From positions 1 through 41,629 of the IMG/VR virus record IMGVR_UViG_3300024254_000006: DNA of 41,629 nucleotides; one strand, given 5' to 3'. The position numbers and the translations under genes are program-made. The stretch is from a virus. Its lineage: Duplodnaviria > Caudoviricetes. The notes under the pieces were generated by a model. The model was not told the DNA's origin. It saw only the letters and a program-made list of their open reading frames with translations, and did no database searches. This document shows, one piece after another, positions 25,719 through 38,308 of this stretch. Position 1 is the first letter of the stretch, and the number at the start of each line of letters is the position of its first letter.

Positions 25719-26003
25719 ATGGACGATCTGACGCCGGAAGGAAGGCTTGCGGTCATAGCTCGCGAGGAATGCTACAAGCGATATGACAGCGTCGACGGCC
25801 GGTCTGCCATTCGCCGAAGCTATCCGCCGGATTATGCGGACTTTCGCGCGGTCTTCGAAGAGCCAGTCAAGATCTTGATTCTTGAAGCGAAGCTCGAAGA
25901 GGCAAGGCTTAAGCCTGCGAACGGCGCGCGCATCAAGAGAATTTTGGAAGAGTTAGGCGAATTGAAAGGAAAACAGAATGAGCTCGGTCACAACAAATCT
26001 TAA
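25719..26003 (+). CDS. Hypothetical protein
   Basis: ORF tightly packed in the operon. Confidence 0.6.
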   Translation: MDDLTPEGRLAVIAREECYKRYDSVDGRSAIRRSYPPDYADFRAVFEEPVKILILEAKLEEARLKPANGARIKRILEELGELKGKQNELGHNKS

Positions 26004-26343
26004 ACTTGAAAAAAGCAAGTCGAACGAATCCGCGGCGCAAGTTGCAGCTCGCCATGATGCCAACTTGGATGCTATCGACGCGGCGGCCGCTGGGGGTTCG
26101 AATAAATATGTTCAATTCAATGATGGCGGTGTGCTTGGCGGAAATAGCGCATTTCAATTCGACAAGGCGACCGGCATTCTCACGCTTGGCGGATTGAAGA
26201 TCGTCACTGGAACCGGAGATCCTTCGGGCGTCGTAGCGGCACCGGTCGGCAGCCTATTCCTTCGCTCAGATGGCGGCACATCCACGACGCTATATGTTAA
26301 AGAAACGGGAACGACGACTAGCTCTGGATGGGTCGCAAAATAA
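25978..26343 (+). CDS. Short fibre-like virion protein
   Basis: VQFNDGGVLGG and GTGDPSGVVAAPVGSLFLRSDGG..TLYVKE.G....GW motifs common in phage fibres. Confidence 0.7.
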   Translation: MSSVTTNLKLEKSKSNESAAQVAARHDANLDAIDAAAAGGSNKYVQFNDGGVLGGNSAFQFDKATGILTLGGLKIVTGTGDPSGVVAAPVGSLFLRSDGGTSTTLYVKETGTTTSSGWVAK

Positions 26344-26625
26344 ATGAATCTTCCGCCTAACGTCGAATGGACCGAAGCGCGCCTCGCGGTCTTCATGGAG
26401 CTCTCGCGATTGGATGACGAGTCGAAGCGATTGGCAATCCAGGGCGGAACTATGTCCGATAAGTTGGAAACGAAATTTGCGAAGGATTTGCACGAATGCT
26501 TCGCGGCGATCCGACGAACGAATAGGGAAGTCCAAAACGTGAGAGTTAAGGCAGCGGCGCTGGGTGGCACCGTCGGCCTACTAGTCACGGTATTGGTGGA
26601 AGTCGCGCGCCATTTCTGGAGATAG
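26344..26625 (+). CDS. Coiled-coil protein with C-terminal TM (possible lysis component)
   Basis: C-terminus AAALGGTVGLLVTVLV; abuts the previous stop. Confidence 0.6.
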   Translation: MNLPPNVEWTEARLAVFMELSRLDDESKRLAIQGGTMSDKLETKFAKDLHECFAAIRRTNREVQNVRVKAAALGGTVGLLVTVLVEVARHFWR

Positions 26626-26646
26626 GCAGCCGAAAGATGACAGAAA

Positions 26647-26844
26647 ATGGGGAACCTAACGGACGATCAGAAGCAGGTCATACGCAACACGCTCTCGCTC
26701 CTGGCAGACGAGCGCATTCGTGTTAGGCGAGAAATCGATGACAAAGTTGTTTCGACGATCAAGCTCGACGAAATTGAACGCAAATTGGGCCACACCTATA
26801 GCGATCTTCGACGGCTTTTGATCGAAGATGAGCAGACAAAATGA
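26647..26844 (+). CDS. Hypothetical protein
   Basis: ATGA overlap with the next gene. Confidence 0.6.
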   Translation: MGNLTDDQKQVIRNTLSLLADERIRVRREIDDKVVSTIKLDEIERKLGHTYSDLRRLLIEDEQTK

Positions 26845-27488
26845 TGGACCCTCGCGCCAAGGTTGAACTAGCTTGCGGCATTTTGTTCCTAGTCTCGGGT
26901 CTATTTGGTTTTCGCATTTGGCTCGAAGAACATGATGACAAAATGAAGGCGCAAGCCAGTATCGCAGCCGCGCAAAAGGCCTTCGACCAGCTCGCGGCAG
27001 ATCGCCAGACCCACGAGGCCGCAGACAAGGCGCGCGATGACGCTGCCGCGAAACAGATCGAGGCCATGCAAAAGCTCGCGTCACAGATCCAGACGCCAGC
27101 GCAGATCGCCAAATGGCTTCCACAACAGCTTCCCGGCGTCCCTCAGCCCATCACGATCACCGTTCCGCCTGCAACCTCGCAAAACCCCCAGCCCGACGCT
27201 ACCGCGTCGATTCCGCAAGTCGATCTGCCAATTCTGAGGGATGCAGTTGAAAAATGCCGGGAAGATTCTCTGAAGCTATCGACTTGTCGATCTGATCTAG
27301 CCTCACGCGATGCGCAAATGAAGATGGCGAATGCGCAGATCGATCAGCTCAAGAACGAGAAGAGCGCACTGCAGACCGAGCTAAAGGGTGGGACTTTTTT
27401 CACCCGGGTAAAACGAGCAGGGAAGTGGCTAGTGATTGGCGCTGGCATCGGCGCCGCGGCGATCTGCGCATCTGGCCATTGCAAATAG
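26841..27488 (+). CDS. Membrane-anchored coiled-coil protein, spanin-like candidate
   Basis: N-terminal TM, two coiled coils separated by a Pro-rich linker, hydrophobic C-terminus. Confidence 0.5.
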   Translation: MMDPRAKVELACGILFLVSGLFGFRIWLEEHDDKMKAQASIAAAQKAFDQLAADRQTHEAADKARDDAAAKQIEAMQKLASQIQTPAQIAKWLPQQLPGVPQPITITVPPATSQNPQPDATASIPQVDLPILRDAVEKCREDSLKLSTCRSDLASRDAQMKMANAQIDQLKNEKSALQTELKGGTFFTRVKRAGKWLVIGAGIGAAAICASGHCK

Positions 27489-27501
27489 GAAAGGAAAAGC
27501 T

Positions 27502-27663
27502 ATGTTCCAACACAACGAAGCACCGTTCCGCATCATCCTCGTCTGCGTCGCCATGGTGTTTTTCGGCTTCGCGGCGATCGCATGGAATCCTCCGGTCGAA
27601 CCCTATCGCGTTCGCTTGCTCGCCGCAGGAATGTTCTGTCTTTCGCTGAGTACGTTCTTTTAG
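27502..27663 (+). CDS. 53-aa two-TM protein (possible holin)
   Basis: AAGGA RBS; MFQHNEAPFRIILVCVAMVFFGFAAIAW..LLAAGMFCLSLSTFF. Confidence 0.6.
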   Translation: MFQHNEAPFRIILVCVAMVFFGFAAIAWNPPVEPYRVRLLAAGMFCLSLSTFF

Positions 27664-27815
27664 AACGGCAAAGGCGGGGTCGGGGAGCTCGGCCTCGCTG
27701 GATGCTCGAGCCCGTTGTAGAAGTCCGCTGCCACGCGCTGCGACACTGCGAGCGCAAAGAGTCCAAGGAACGCGACGACGAGCGCCAATTCTGTCAGATC
27801 GAATTTTCTAAGCAT
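27660..27815 (-). CDS. 51-aa secreted pro-peptide (below the ORF-track cutoff)
   Basis: GGGGG RBS; MLRKFDLTELALVVAFLGLFALAVSQRVAA|DFYNGLEHPARPSSPTPPLPF*; its stop overlaps the stop of the convergent gene. Confidence 0.7.
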   Translation of the reverse strand: MLRKFDLTELALVVAFLGLFALAVSQRVAADFYNGLEHPARPSSPTPPLPF

Positions 27816-27965
27816 CAAACCCCCAGTTTTTCTTCCTCAGGATTTTCTTCCGCATGGTGGCACTTCATGTGGCATTGCCTCAATTTTGACCGCTGCGTGT
27901 TCCCTATAAGTCGTTAATTCTGTTATGTATAGCGTTCGCTGAAATCTCAAAAGAAGGACTAGGGG

Positions 27966-28163
27966 TCACTCCCGTCCGCACTCTTTCGCTGTCAAGTGCC
28001 GCAATTGCTTCGGGCCAGCCGCATAACGAGCGCCGCGCCGGTCATGGCAAAGGTGAATGACGTCCCAATATCGTCCCCACGGCCCACGAGCCTCGACTTG
28101 GACATAGCATCCGTTACTTTCATCGTAGGCCACTTGCCCTGGCTTGAATTGCGGCTTCCTCAT
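27966..28163 (-). CDS. Hypothetical protein coupled to the integrase
   Basis: ATGA overlap with the int stop; GGAG RBS. Confidence 0.65.
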   Translation of the reverse strand: MRKPQFKPGQVAYDESNGCYVQVEARGPWGRYWDVIHLCHDRRGARYAAGPKQLRHLTAKECGRE

Positions 28164-29224
28164 TTGGCTCCGATCTTCTCGATCTCGATTGCCCGATGAT
28201 CCGGCGACAGGTGCGAGTAGCGCTCCGTCATGGTGATCGAATGATGGCCGAGAAAGTCTTTTACGCTATTGAGTGGCACGCCCGCCATCACAAGCCGCGA
28301 AGCAAACGTGTGGCGCAGGTCGTGCCAGCGGAAGTTTTCTATTCCGGCTTCCTTCACGGCATCTTCAAACCAGCGCCGCCAGTCCTTTTGCGTGTCGCTT
28401 TTAGTGTCAAGGCACACGTAAGGGAAGAAGGCGTTCACAATTTGAGATTCAAGGTCCGTTCCCCTCGTAACGACTAGCCTGTCGCGCATTTCCTTTAATT
28501 TATGAAGTGCAGCCTTTGCGCTGGAATTCAGCGTGATGTATCGCCGACCACTCTTCCCGTAAACCGTCAGCCGTCCTAGTTCCAGGTCCACGTTCTCCCA
28601 CTTCAAACTAAATTGCTCGCCGCGGCGCATCCCGGTATAAAGCGCCAGGTCAAGCTCTGGCTCACGCTCCGGACATTTCTCGCGTATCATCTTTCGCAGC
28701 CGCTCTTCCTCTTCCGGTCGCAAATATCGGTCACGGTGCGCATTTTCCTTAGACCGTTCCACGTCTGCGATTGGATTCGAGGGAATCAGTTTCATGCGCT
28801 TGCCATATTTGAAAATGCTCGATAGCAGGGAACGATAGCGATTAGTCGTCGATCCACTTAGACCGCGGTTGCGGAATTTTGCGAGCACGGTTTCGATCTC
28901 GGCCGGGTGGACCGCCGCCGCTTCCAAGTGGCCGAGTAGAGGGTAAAGGTGCTCGAGATGTCGCATGTCGGTGATTAAGGACGACGGCTTTAATCTCGAT
29001 CTTTTATATTCCATCGCGCGTTCGGCCAGGTCGCGGAAGGTCAGCCCTCTACCGCCGTACCTCGGCGGCACATATCGCCCCTCGCGGATCTCGCGCTTCC
29101 TGTCAGAGTAAGCCGTGATCGCCTCAGCCTTGCGGCCGATCCGCTCGCGGTGACGTTTGCCCTGGCGGTCGCAGTAGCTGATTCCCCAAACCCCTGATCC
29201 TTTTGGCTTTTCGAAGATTCCCAC
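28160..29224 (-). CDS. int: Tyrosine integrase
   Basis: TGMRRGE, K, HDLRHTFASRL, LGH, Y; N-terminal arm-binding beta domain; GTG start chosen from promoter geometry. Confidence 0.95.
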   Translation of the reverse strand: MGIFEKPKGSGVWGISYCDRQGKRHRERIGRKAEAITAYSDRKREIREGRYVPPRYGGRGLTFRDLAERAMEYKRSRLKPSSLITDMRHLEHLYPLLGHLEAAAVHPAEIETVLAKFRNRGLSGSTTNRYRSLLSSIFKYGKRMKLIPSNPIADVERSKENAHRDRYLRPEEEERLRKMIREKCPEREPELDLALYTGMRRGEQFSLKWENVDLELGRLTVYGKSGRRYITLNSSAKAALHKLKEMRDRLVVTRGTDLESQIVNAFFPYVCLDTKSDTQKDWRRWFEDAVKEAGIENFRWHDLRHTFASRLVMAGVPLNSVKDFLGHHSITMTERYSHLSPDHRAIEIEKIGAK

Positions 29225-29231
29225 AAGCAGG

Positions 29232-29260
29232 ATACTACGCCTAAAAATAGTGCTTGACAA
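29232..29260 (-). promoter_or_regulatory. Sigma70-type promoter, leaderless, for int
   Basis: TTGTCA-17-TAGTAT-7-GTG(29224). Confidence 0.7.
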
Positions 29261-29282
29261 GTATTAACAACGCTTGTAAATT
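29254..29282 (+). promoter_or_regulatory. Sigma70-type promoter, leaderless, for the HTH gene
   Basis: TTGACA-17-TAAATT-7-GTG(29290). Confidence 0.75.
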
Positions 29283-29289
29283 GCCGTCC

Positions 29290-29487
29290 GTGAGCAAACA
29301 ACCCCACATCGGAAAGCGCATCAAGGCCTACCGTCTGAGCAATCAAATGACGCAGACTCAGATGGGGGCATTTCTCGGATTAAGCCTAGGCACGATTGTC
29401 AGACTGGAATTCGGCAAACCCTGCACGGAACTAACCCTCGCGAAGATCGAAGCAAAACTCAAAGGAAGAGAAGCAACAGCGGCGTAA
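29290..29487 (+). CDS. XRE/Cro-like HTH regulator
   Basis: IKAYR....MTQTQMGAFLGLSLGTIVRLEFG; no peptidase domain. Confidence 0.88.
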   Translation: MSKQPHIGKRIKAYRLSNQMTQTQMGAFLGLSLGTIVRLEFGKPCTELTLAKIEAKLKGREATAA

Positions 29488-29555
29488 TCAACAATGTTTC
29501 CACAGCGCGCAAATTCGCCGTCATTTTCTAGTTTACATAATATAACAAGTGTTAA

Positions 29556-29903
29556 CTACGTTACCCTCTGCGCGTATTTCCTGCCCTTATTCTCCGCTTC
29601 CACCGCTCGTTTAACCCAAACAGGCATTCGCCGCTTCTTCGCTGCAGGCAACGGCAATCGTCCGGTCGCCACGTCGGATTCTGGACGTTCTGGCCGAGGA
29701 GCCGCGAACTGCTCCAGCCAGGCGGCCGATAATTCCTCAGCCCTGGCTTCGATAAAAGAATCCATCAATTGCATTAGAGCCTTCCGAAAGTTTGCCACGC
29801 GGTTCATTCGGCTGAGCCTGAATTCGGCCGTCTGTCCCTTGTTGATCGTTTCGAGATATTGGATGACGCGGCGGTGCCTTTCATCTGCAGTAAGCGGTTT
29901 CAC
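29556..29903 (-). CDS. Hypothetical helical protein in the control region
   Basis: AAGGGG RBS with GTG start; fills the gap between the HTH and RHH genes. Confidence 0.7.
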   Translation of the reverse strand: MKPLTADERHRRVIQYLETINKGQTAEFRLSRMNRVANFRKALMQLMDSFIEARAEELSAAWLEQFAAPRPERPESDVATGRLPLPAAKKRRMPVWVKRAVEAENKGRKYAQRVT

Positions 29904-30041
29904 TTTGGCCCCTTCAAATGTTTCGAATAGCCAAGATAATTGGGCCGATTCTGGGCAGCACTGGTACTTGGGTACTGAAAAAGTACGGTAATCGACAGGA
30001 CACCGGCAACAATGGCGATGAAACCTGAATGGAGGGTCGGC

Positions 30042-30458
30042 GTGGGGATTGAGATGAGGACGGTAAGCCTGAAATTAAGCGAACAGACCATGAAGCAGGT
30101 CGATGAACTGCGCGACGCTTTCCATCCTTTCACGGAAAACCGCAGCCAGGTCTTCCGCGTCGTCGTTGAAATCATGCATTCCCTGGTGTTCACGAAGGGA
30201 ACTCTAAAGTCGATCGTGGAACGGCTTCAAGGGATGCTTCGTAATAGTTCGTATTTTCAGACAGAGTTTGAATTTCCTGCGCACGCAGCGCCGGAAACGG
30301 GCGTGGGGTTGGCTGCGGATAATCTGGACGCTCGTCAGCCCCGCGTCATTTCGATCAGTCGCCGAGTGGCGGATGTGGTGGAACCGGGAACGGCGGCATA
30401 TACATCACCGTCCTTTCTGGGCGTTGTTCGCCCATTGTTCGCCGCGAGGATAGCATGA
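30042..30458 (+). CDS. Ribbon-helix-helix (CopG/Arc-like) regulator
   Basis: TVSLKLSEQTMKQVDEL......NRSQVFR; GGAGG RBS before GTG 30042 (start uncertain). Confidence 0.75.
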   Translation: MGIEMRTVSLKLSEQTMKQVDELRDAFHPFTENRSQVFRVVVEIMHSLVFTKGTLKSIVERLQGMLRNSSYFQTEFEFPAHAAPETGVGLAADNLDARQPRVISISRRVADVVEPGTAAYTSPSFLGVVRPLFAARIA

Positions 30459-31171
30459 ACAAAAAACTTCGGAGGCGTGTGGTGCATATCTCGACGTTGG
30501 CTTCGATTATCGCGGTACTTCTCGCCACGGGTTTTGTGTTGCGTGTTCCTGGCAGATCGATTTCTTGGACTGTTCCAGCCTATCTCATTGCCCAATTCTT
30601 CTTCGCCGTGATCGCGTGGTGGGGGTTGCAAAAGGTAGACGCACTCTCCGGGTCGTACATGAACTATTACGCGCTGTCATTCGGTTCCGTGCTCCTGCTC
30701 GCCGTTTTGGTCACGATTCGCATGGCCATGGTGCATCCGACGGGTTTGGGAATCTTTTTGTTAGTGGGCGCCGCCGCTCAATCGGCCGCGATCGCTTCCG
30801 TAATCTATTGGGAACTTCTCAAGGAATACGGAGGGCATGTCCCTGCGGCGTGCCAGATCGCGGCCTTTCAAGCCGCCGTGCTCGCGTTCTGCGGCGCGGT
30901 CACTCTCACCGTTACCGCTGCGAAAGTTGAAACGGAACTCTGGTCGGTATCCATGGCGCTCGGCATGTTCTGGAGCGCGATTGCTTTCCTCTCGTGGGGC
31001 TACGCACTCGGGATTACTCGAAGCCGCGGCATCTGGATTCACCTGAACAATTTTCTTCCTGCGTTTTTGGCGGTAGTGGCTTTCGCCTGGCTCGCTTTCC
31101 AACTGAGCGGAATACAGAGCGAGCTCTCGCGGCAGGAAGTGACTCAGGGCGTGGTCGTTTCTGAACAGTGA
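30455..31171 (+). CDS. Polytopic (~7 TM) membrane protein
   Basis: About 7 hydrophobic segments, no enzymatic domain; ATGA-coupled to the RHH gene. Confidence 0.8.
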   Translation: MNKKLRRRVVHISTLASIIAVLLATGFVLRVPGRSISWTVPAYLIAQFFFAVIAWWGLQKVDALSGSYMNYYALSFGSVLLLAVLVTIRMAMVHPTGLGIFLLVGAAAQSAAIASVIYWELLKEYGGHVPAACQIAAFQAAVLAFCGAVTLTVTAAKVETELWSVSMALGMFWSAIAFLSWGYALGITRSRGIWIHLNNFLPAFLAVVAFAWLAFQLSGIQSELSRQEVTQGVVVSEQ

Positions 31172-31184
31172 AAGGGGTGCAGTC

Positions 31185-31304
31185 GTGCAAATCGTTACAC
31201 CGGAAAACGCAAAGCTGATCGTTGAATTCGTCGTCGCTGCAGTTCTTCTCGTGGGTTTCATCGCGGCTGTGAATCTTTGCGTGATGGCCAAGGGGCGGCC
31301 GTGA
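31185..31304 (+). CDS. 39-aa single-TM micro-protein
   Basis: AAGGGG RBS; MQIVTPENAKLIVEFVVAAVLLVGFIAAVNLCVMAKGRP*; GTGA overlap with the next gene. Confidence 0.65.
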   Translation: MQIVTPENAKLIVEFVVAAVLLVGFIAAVNLCVMAKGRP

Positions 31305-32011
31305 ACATCATTAAAGAACGCCTCGATAAAATTGCAAACATCCCGCTCACGGAAGGATCGCATTCGCCAGATTCTCAGTTCTGCGTCATGGAAGCTGTCG
31401 CGTTCGTCGCTGGAGAAAAATGGAGCGACGCTCCTGAATGCGCCTGCCCGGTGATCGGTGCTTTTCTACGAGCGTGGAACGATGCACTTCCAAGTGACGC
31501 CGAGCGCGACCGACTTCTAAAGCCACTTATCCCGCGAATCGTTGGAACGAAAAATAAAGACCTTGAGGAAAAGCGTTCGCTGATGGCTGCTGATTGGCTA
31601 GTGAGAGTAAATACTCCCGCATGGCTCCGTCTTGCTGGACTGAATGATCAGGCTGCAGCACTGGAATCGCTTCCTGAAATCACGAGCATGGCGCAGGTTC
31701 CTTCTATTCGTGGGCCGATCGAAGCGGCACGGCGCGATGCGGCCGCAGCCTGGGACGCAGCCAGGGCCGCAGCCTGGGACGCAGCCAGGGCCGCAGCCTG
31801 GGCCGCAGCCTGGGCCGCAGCCAGGGCCGCAGCCAGGGACGCAGCCTGGGACGCAGCCAGGGACGCAGCCAGGGACGCAGCCTGGGACGCAGCCAGGGAC
31901 GCAGCCTGGGACGCAGCCAGGGCCGCAGCCTGGGAGAAATTGAAACCGACTGCTTCGCAGTTACAGCAATCCGCGCTCGAACTCATTGAGCGAATGATCG
32001 AGGCCGCATGA
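31301..32011 (+). CDS. Phage protein with AAWD/AARA repeats
   Basis: GSH..CVMEAVAFVAGE.WSD.P.C.CPVI..F...WND N-terminal domain followed by the repeat tract. Confidence 0.8.
   Translation: MNIIKERLDKIANIPLTEGSHSPDSQFCVMEAVAFVAGEKWSDAPECACPVIGAFLRAWNDALPSDAERDRLLKPLIPRIVGTKNKDLEEKRSLMAADWLVRVNTPAWLRLAGLNDQAAALESLPEITSMAQVPSIRGPIEAARRDAAAAWDAARAAAWDAARAAAWAAAWAAARAAARDAAWDAARDAARDAAWDAARDAAWDAARAAAWEKLKPTASQLQQSALELIERMIEAA
31745..31935 (+). repeat. 12-bp tandem repeat, ~16 units
   Basis: GCAGCC(T/A)GGG(A/C)C units. Confidence 0.95.
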
Positions 32012-37969: not shown

Positions 37970-38308
37970 ATGAGAAAGCTGATGATCTGCACTTTATTCT
38001 GGCTATTCGCTCCACAGAGCCAGATGGTTGCGCCGAAGGTAGAGCACAAAAAGCGCACCGAGACTCAGGTGTACGACGAAGTGACGCGCTCATGTCCTGA
38101 TGGCTATGAAGGTCATTTTGTGGATATACAGGCGGGATTCGGCGGGAGCAGCGGCTACAACGGCAGCAATAATAATCTGGTGTTTTATCAAACCATTTTT
38201 GGTCCCGAAGCTGGATATACGGTCTGCTTCAAGAAAGAGTTCATGGATGAGATACGCAAGAATCCTGAATTGCTTGTGCAGCGTCCAGCGCCGCCTAGGC
38301 CAATTTGA
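37970..38308 (+). CDS. Hypothetical protein with a possible signal sequence
   Basis: MRKLMICTLFWLFAP short hydrophobic N-terminus; two further Cys. Confidence 0.55.
   Translation: MRKLMICTLFWLFAPQSQMVAPKVEHKKRTETQVYDEVTRSCPDGYEGHFVDIQAGFGGSSGYNGSNNNLVFYQTIFGPEAGYTVCFKKEFMDEIRKNPELLVQRPAPPRPI

Follow-up and report, generated by a model that had tools for sequence, protein, structure and literature searches.

A phage clade of seven-transmembrane proteins related to a peptide-linked family of Terriglobia, with a candidate proline-tailed peptide precursor in one temperate phage

The virus record IMGVR_UViG_3300024254_000006 (Caudoviricetes; IMG/VR) was analyzed over its whole length of 41,629 bases, hereafter called the window. 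With its direct terminal repeats, it represents a complete 41.6-kb temperate soil phage. Our main subject is a seven-transmembrane (7-TM) protein encoded near the head of its early operon, together with a small peptide of 51 amino acids (aa) encoded on the other side of the integrase gene. Two results of this computational work are solid: the 7-TM protein belongs to a clade whose genes lie in phage early operons, and this clade descends from a chromosomal family linked to peptide precursors. We propose that the 7-TM protein could be an early-expressed sensor of proline-rich, host-type peptides outside the inner membrane, and that the 51-aa gene would be an optional add-on supplying one such peptide. 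This proposal, built on sequence comparison and structure modelling, is a tentative one to which we give slightly less than an even chance. The two genes are as follows.

30455..31171, plus strand: 7-TM protein with a predicted helix arrangement of the G protein-coupled receptor (GPCR) type in a structure model, and with profile homology to a Terriglobia family
27660..27815, minus strand: putative secreted precursor of 51 aa, with a hydrophobic signal region and the C-terminus P-x-P-P-x-P-F

The 7-TM protein has no match in Pfam, PHROGs or NCBIfam. Twelve close sequences were collected, and 95 representatives at 50% identity make up a diverse clade. Most homologues begin at the equivalent of GTG 30482, which gives the 229-aa form used below for residue numbering. 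The five distinct loci whose context could be read are all viral: the window, G001/L005, G002, G433/G434 (a single phage recorded twice) and, on G448, a Mu-like prophage. In four lambdoid phages the gene is part of the early operon, and in the Mu-like prophage it stands directly before the transposase gene, whose start it overlaps, with MuB next, so that two phage types carry it. The early region of this Mu-like element (L202:347-4958, on contig C125 of G448) is made up of a helix-turn-helix (HTH) gene, two small unannotated genes, the phage-clade 7-TM gene, the transposase gene and MuB. When 30 representatives were looked up, six clusters, namely P0013, P0017/P0237, P0035, P0036, P0038 and P0069, were found on contigs of 40-47 kb and none on longer ones, while contigs bearing the chromosomal family reach 562 kb. 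For the remaining members of the clade, the label "phage" is an extrapolation. Scoring the top 7-9 candidates of each genome, a profile of the phage clade gave no strong match in 401 Terriglobia genomes and a single one in 301 genomes from the order to which the host likely belongs. No 7-TM gene appeared in 27 virus records with a related integrase, and tblastn with two clade members found no match in 50,697 GenBank phage records. The alignment of the close sequences gave no locus among genome contigs, nor did P0069 among viral contigs. Three hits of the phage-clade profile, L057 (a 537-aa flippase-like open reading frame, ORF), L196 and L201, were false matches and were dropped.

The link with peptides comes from bacterial chromosomes. 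The phage profile gave weak matches (20-25 bits) to chromosomal genes, and three of four are 7-TM genes with a proline-rich ORF bearing a signal peptide directly upstream. A profile made from two chromosomal 7-TM genes retrieved the family at 79 places in 70 of 201 Terriglobia genomes; 70 of these places were fetched and 69 scored, L127 being left out because it had no ORF match. A precursor lies upstream on the same strand in 61 of the 69 loci, mostly 20-150 nt away; as a control, 74 other ORFs were examined with this rule, and 5 of them were preceded by a match. The preliminary description of this DNA had pointed to 7-TM genes beside peptides ending in PxPPxP in acidobacterial genomes, and this link is borne out. 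Twelve of the 61 precursors end in P-x-P-P-x-P followed by W, F or Y, and many loci also carry a third gene encoding an N-anchored protein of 135-160 aa. Seventeen new loci of the likely host order were chosen only by their similarity to the phage-clade profile: 15 are family members, 14 of these have a precursor, and 8 of the 14 precursors end in P-x-P-P-x-P-W. Compared with each other, the profiles of the phage clade and of the chromosomal family give an alignment of 180 columns with a probability of 88.9%, an E-value of 2.4e-6 and a score of 45.7; a reversed profile scores 19.8, and 30 local column shuffles reach 21.5 at most. A divergent chromosomal subgroup (L114, L115, L122, L123) has single-core or spaced precursors, the third gene being longer (about 185 aa) in L114 and L123. 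Our literature search, for which most subscription journals were beyond reach, retrieved no paper on a chromosomal cassette of precursor, 7-TM and third gene, or on the 7-TM family.

One would also wonder whether the precursor could be a cis-acting leader, that is, an upstream ORF causing ribosome arrest through a signal peptide and a proline-rich end, rather than the source of a diffusible signal. Its short distance to the chromosomal 7-TM gene, on the same strand, would suit such a role. However, many chromosomal precursors hold several near-identical cores, which fits processing into several signals, and the peptide gene of the window phage converges on the lysis genes, with no annotated gene after it on its strand. 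We consider a leader function very improbable.

A model of the 7-TM protein computed from an alignment of 74 rows displays seven helices and a short tail, with a predicted local distance difference test (pLDDT) score of 93.7 and a predicted template modelling (pTM) score of 0.89, in agreement with the approximate count of seven segments made earlier. A first model, obtained from the 12 close sequences, was poor (pLDDT 53.9) and was replaced. A structure search with this model covered 48,161 solved chains. GPCRs or GPCR-like domains make up 49 of the 50 matches listed, including LYCHOS, which we take to be GPCR-like. The listed GPCR-type matches have Z-scores of 9.5-12.0 and root-mean-square deviations (rmsd) of 3.5-7.6 Å over 172-202 aligned residues, with 5-12% identity. 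Profile scans of the 74 clade members gave four single weak matches only, one of them to 7tm_1 at E 0.004. The model is consistent with a GPCR-type fold and does not prove it. Residues Y59, G177, W185, N189 and P193 are conserved in the phage clade, outer-face aromatic residues are kept across the 74 diverse members, and the tail after helix 7 displays a conserved Q212-x-E214-x-x-R217-Q218 motif that is the clade's own. Loop charges in the chromosomal family fit an N-out/C-in topology; if this topology is assumed for the phage proteins, the five conserved residues would point outwards and the QxExxRQ tail would be cytoplasmic. Aromatic residues could hold a polyproline peptide. A complex prediction combining the 7-TM protein (74-row alignment) with residues 22-51 of the peptide scored 0.01, which says nothing either way.

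As for the 51-aa peptide, it fits a signal-peptide precursor with a short C-terminal mature peptide by hydropathy and a motif rule only, and this rule, its motif and its filters were all chosen after the peptide had been seen. In simulated windows, an ORF joining a signal region to the proline motif occurs 0.05 times per window, and the strict C-terminal motif is present in none of 40. Among 11,357 phage ORFs, the window peptide is alone in ending with P-x-P-P-x-P-[WFY]. Scored with a matrix made from host-order cores of the type found in 8 of 14 precursors, its C-terminus ranks second among 956 signal-like small ORFs. Homologue searches with the peptide sequence found none. Its gene occupies a variable slot between the lysis genes and a non-coding stretch read as attP, where sister phages have small transmembrane (TM) ORFs (G002) or a 148-aa secreted protein (L005). 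In the close 7-TM carrier L001/L005 (8380-9305, L005 numbering), this 148-aa protein fills the slot and there is no integrase gene between the lysis and control genes.

Two further genes lie beside the 7-TM gene in the early operon.

30054..30458 (ORF 30012-30458), plus strand: putative regulator of ribbon-helix-helix (RHH)-like type, first gene of the early operon, preceding the 7-TM gene; the start of its homologues corresponds to ATG 30054
31185..31304, plus strand: single-TM protein of 39 aa, a possible partner, with a homologue in G002 (E 0.0012)

The stop codon of the RHH-like gene overlaps the ATG of the 7-TM gene at 30455. For comparison, 20 of the 27 virus records with a related integrase were read almost in full, over 767 kb, some ends being covered in part over up to 4 kb. 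The RHH-like gene is found upstream of the 7-TM gene in all four lambdoid carriers, separated from it by an endonuclease gene in the distant G433/G434, and in none of the 20 other phages, a co-occurrence that could also come from co-inheritance of the whole block. The RHH regulator put forward in the preliminary description is present and coupled to the 7-TM gene, but its fold remains a pattern-level label: the protein has no Pfam match, and the leads from ESM Atlas to RHH_1 and RHH_6 stay below 0.9. Its profile found nothing in the 301 host-order genomes. All five phage loci have a small gene, RHH-like or other, upstream of the 7-TM gene, and none has a precursor directly upstream. In the place of the 39-aa gene, L001 and G433/G434 have small hydrophobic ORFs. 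The gene right after the 7-TM gene of G433/G434 (L180:10690-10920, plus strand) encodes a 76-aa signal-peptide protein with two cysteines and a proline-containing N-terminal mature part, which could be a different ligand or partner.

The preliminary description had paired the peptide with the 7-TM protein. Pushed to its end, this idea gives a dedicated arbitrium-like pair, in which the 7-TM protein of the phage has the phage peptide as its cognate ligand and both together form the lysis-lysogeny switch. Both genes are indeed in one genome, each being rare among the 20 related phages (none with the 7-TM gene, one with a clear precursor), the end motif of the peptide recurs in precursors accompanying those chromosomal genes that are nearest to the phage clade, and the high diversity of the 7-TM proteins would suit private signals. 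On the other hand, a matching peptide is found in one of the five phage loci with the 7-TM gene, the window itself, which argues against a fixed pair. No matching precursor was found in G002, whose 7-TM protein is 72% identical and which is the one complete genome among the other four carriers, nor in the 16.8 kb of L005, in G433 and G434 (67 and 69% complete) or in the 6.6-kb contig of G448. Conversely, G019 (87% complete) has a two-core precursor but no detectable 7-TM gene. In the window, 2.6 kb separate the two genes, which are encoded on different strands and lie on either side of the putative attP, where integration would part the peptide gene from the integrase and 7-TM genes. The missing repressor does not help either: as had been stated, the genome of the window phage contains no Peptidase_S24, but an S24 domain occurs in none of 22 related phages, with or without the 7-TM gene, so that this clade-wide trait says nothing about peptide control. 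The stated lack of an AimR-like receptor agrees with our scans, in which no family with tetratricopeptide repeats (TPR/RRNPP) turned up among 30 ORFs (Pfam) or 57 ORFs (PHROGs), although no search aimed at TPR was made. The pairing expected between 7-TM homologues and neighbouring peptide ORFs holds on chromosomes (61 of 69) and is weak in phages (1 of 5), and we find a dedicated pair improbable. The precursor of G019 itself (L028:4305-4601, minus strand) lies between the lysis genes and the integrase gene and displays cysteine pairs and two near-identical proline-rich cores of host type.

Returning to the proposal of a sensor for host-type peptides, several results weigh against it. On the receptor side, the phage and chromosomal clades are about 14% identical and form fully separate groups in a tree, so that the class of ligand need not be kept between them, and a profile of 35 third genes gave nothing under E 0.6 among phage ORFs. 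The Z-scores of 9.5-12 lie below about 13, where the search tool warns of a common helical arrangement, Foldseek returned nothing at E 0.001 or better from PDB and BFVD (E 0.1 or worse), and the loop charges of the phage clade alone leave its topology ambiguous. In the Mu-like element, the gene before the 7-TM gene is no detectable RHH-like homologue. On the peptide side, a hidden Markov model of 34 precursors leaves the window peptide unlisted at E 50, whereas 24 of 27 held-out precursors obtain more than 15 bits. The pattern picked out by a blind motif search is the N-terminal half of the core. This half is missing from the window peptide, whose match is confined to the C-terminal one; the peptide scores 5.8 against a chromosomal median of 19.3 and ranks 53rd of 956. 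Without the filters on signal and C-terminus, it ranks 348th of 11,357.

These profile tests, which do not put the peptide in the precursor family, would agree with a more ordinary explanation. The 7-TM protein could be a receptor-derived membrane accessory that no longer binds peptides, acting for example in superinfection exclusion or envelope modification, and the 51-aa ORF an unrelated moron whose proline tail is coincidental. In sister phages the slot is filled by small ORFs, secreted or TM, that are not related to one another; this and the choice of the motif rule after the fact point the same way. However, in a check that the preliminary description had itself proposed, the window 7-TM protein matches no exclusion or transporter family in Pfam, PHROGs or NCBIfam. 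Exclusion genes are usually expressed in lysogens, and the 7-TM gene, unlike these, belongs to an early operon. The C-terminal motif unique among the phage ORFs and the outer-face aromatics conserved in the clade also argue against this explanation, which we judge to have little likelihood. On balance, we lean towards regarding the window peptide as a real member, or a mimic, of the chromosomal precursor family.

In our proposal of an early sensor, the 7-TM protein is likely made early in infection. The precursor would be exported by the Sec pathway and trimmed to its proline-rich C-terminal peptide. With the N-terminus outside and the C-terminus inside, Y59, G177, W185, N189 and P193 may form a pocket for such a peptide, and the inner tail following helix 7 may relay the signal to a partner. 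Since the phage has no third gene, this partner would be the 39-aa TM protein or the RHH-like protein. The output could tune early gene expression and hence, plausibly, the choice between lysis and lysogeny. Since a peptide gene is missing from most carriers, the ligand would by default come from the host, a form of eavesdropping to which the window phage would add its own peptide. Each of these steps, from the export and processing of the precursor to peptide binding, the relay and the effect on lysogeny, is hypothetical. The complete claim, namely that acidobacterial phages of at least two types own a clade of GPCR-fold receptors reading proline-rich signals, the host's or, here, their own, at the membrane and relaying them, by way of an RHH regulator, to the choice between lysis and lysogeny, appears doubtful to us.

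Another possibility is that these genes act on the host. The 7-TM protein could be a decoy or a constitutive mimic draining or jamming the peptide system of the host, and the peptide a moron product targeting the host receptor, with no input to the phage decision. The lack of a third gene in the phage and the independent assortment of peptide and 7-TM genes among phages speak for this possibility, as does the G019 precursor, which is close to host cores (rank 3 of 956). Phage agr genes have likewise been proposed to act on the host (PMC3901668). Nevertheless, the RHH-like gene travels with the 7-TM gene in lambdoid carriers (four of four, against none of 20 others), which suggests an output on the phage side, and the phage clade retains a conserved inner tail of its own. 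Host manipulation seems unlikely to us, if less so than the dedicated pair.

The remaining features between the peptide gene and the early operon are listed below.

27826..28005, non-coding: inferred attP, conserved with phage G002, with GTGGCA repeats, an inverted arm and a site that we take to be IHF-like
28160..29260, minus strand: tyrosine integrase (PF00589, E 3.6e-28; phrog_1)
29254..29487 (likely start GTG 29290), plus strand: small XRE/Cro-like HTH protein (PF01381, E 2.6e-5)
29556..29903, minus strand: 115-aa helical protein of an unannotated family that is frequent in related phages

All the genes that the preliminary description had placed in this region are present, namely the 51-aa ORF and those for the integrase, the HTH protein, the 115-aa protein, the RHH-like protein, the 7-TM protein and the 39-aa TM protein. 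The stretch 27826..28005 was read as attP by inference: 120 nt of non-coding sequence just upstream of the peptide gene are conserved with G002 and have an inverted partner at 27994-28005. A search for attB or a tRNA target of integration found neither. A sigma-70-like promoter at 29254-29282 precedes the HTH gene, back to back with a weaker leftward site, the promoter scan giving 3 sites where 2.1 were expected. The 115-aa protein had been called an orphan, but it has homologues in L005 and in 6 of the 20 related phages that do not have the 7-TM gene, so that it is not a dedicated part of the 7-TM system. In acidobacterial phages without S24, members of this family (L005, L027, L033, L037, L038, L039, L041) are flanked by a small HTH-/RHH-like gene on one side and by a divergent Cro-like gene on the other, and the family is a candidate part of an unusual switch.

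The genome has a lambda-like layout, with terminase, portal, protease, capsid and tail genes followed by lysis-type genes, the integrase gene and small regulators, downstream of which the early operon continues to gp157, RecT and RusA (Pfam, PHROGs). Positions 26800-31770 are identical (0 differences) to one contig of a public run, at a depth of about 31; this run could be that of the source sample. No endolysin was identified among the ORFs scanned in 25719-27663, a place occupied by an ORF that we read as lysozyme-like in L001 and by an endolysin in L180. At 31277-32011 (plus strand) is encoded a 244-aa protein with an AAWDAARA-type tandem repeat (phrog_8332 and phrog_3416), the same position being held in G002 by a pentapeptide-repeat protein. 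A 112-aa ORF at 37970-38308 (plus strand), with a signal-like N-terminus, two cysteines and a proline-rich C-terminal end, satisfies a loose version of the precursor rule; its product has no Pfam match and no homologue among related phages. An integrase search matched five genome loci, of which the best four are from Terriglobia (Acidobacteriota). The top match (51%) is in a metagenome-assembled genome of Ca. Acidiferrales (G003), and the same locus encodes a homologue of the 26841-27488 protein. The ESM Atlas clusters nearest to the 7-TM protein are mostly from Acidobacteriota. These sequence comparisons point to a likely host among the Terriglobia, which is likely also diderm. The order-level host guess, the choice of the 301 host-order genomes with the loci drawn from them, and locus L054 all rest on the unpublished genome G003.

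A parallel can be drawn with two known phage systems. The arbitrium system (AimP-AimR-AimX), known from the SPbeta/phi3T phages of Bacillus, relies on an imported peptide and on AimR, a TPR protein of the cytoplasm; a review describes peptide-guided phage decisions that use cytoplasmic TPR receptors in Bacillota, and reports aimP-like genes beside 96% of aimR homologues (PMC11945551). The window shares with it a temperate phage, a putative short signal-peptide precursor with a candidate C-terminal mature peptide and a candidate receptor among early control genes. It differs by a membrane 7-TM receptor candidate, a peptide gene that is not adjacent and is found in one of five carriers instead of the 96% given in the review, and a likely diderm host. 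Phage phiCDHM1 of Clostridium difficile has genes for AgrB, AgrD and AgrC, the last a histidine kinase of the membrane (PMC3901668). Membrane peptide receptors therefore have a precedent in phages, of another class, contrary to the earlier suggestion that they had not been described. What both cases have in common is a phage bearing homologues of a peptide-signalling system of its host, membrane receptor included, but lacking the component that acts downstream in the host. In contrast to AgrC, a histidine kinase that comes with AgrB for processing, the 7-TM protein is devoid of kinase or other soluble domains, has no neighbour resembling AgrB and belongs to a deep clade of its own; no kinase domain or AgrB was matched among the window proteins scanned (Pfam, PHROGs, NCBIfam). 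The window system would work like arbitrium or a phage-borne agr while being a member of neither, and the interpretation given in the preliminary description is partly supported.

With the Terriglobia cassette, the phage shares a homologous 7-TM protein and a peptide with a signal region and a P-x-P-P-x-P-aromatic end; unlike there, the two phage genes are not adjacent, there is no third gene, the peptide has a single core in which the first half of the motif (N-terminal) is missing, and the 7-TM gene follows an RHH-like one. A likeness to eukaryotic GPCRs, for example fungal Ste2, lies in the seven-helix arrangement of the model and in the multi-core secreted precursors of the chromosomal family. 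Fungal Ste2 pairs with a multi-copy alpha-factor precursor, and it stands in row 11 of the Foldseek matches, at E 0.21. However, identities of 5-12% and rmsd values of 3.5-7.6 Å are found, and a shared fold does not show a common function. The literature search mentioned above retrieved no GPCR-type 7-TM receptor in a bacteriophage and no GPCR-like protein involved in phage lysogeny.

If our proposal is true, phage sensing would be extended to a phylum dominant in soil and, in a diderm host, to receptors of a new class with no relation to AimR or AgrC. The phage clade, for its part, consists of stand-alone proteins with a predicted GPCR-type fold that would be tied to a widespread and uncharacterized acidobacterial peptide system. 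With a receptor candidate of 229 aa, a short synthetic ligand and one candidate regulator, it could offer a compact handle on this system.

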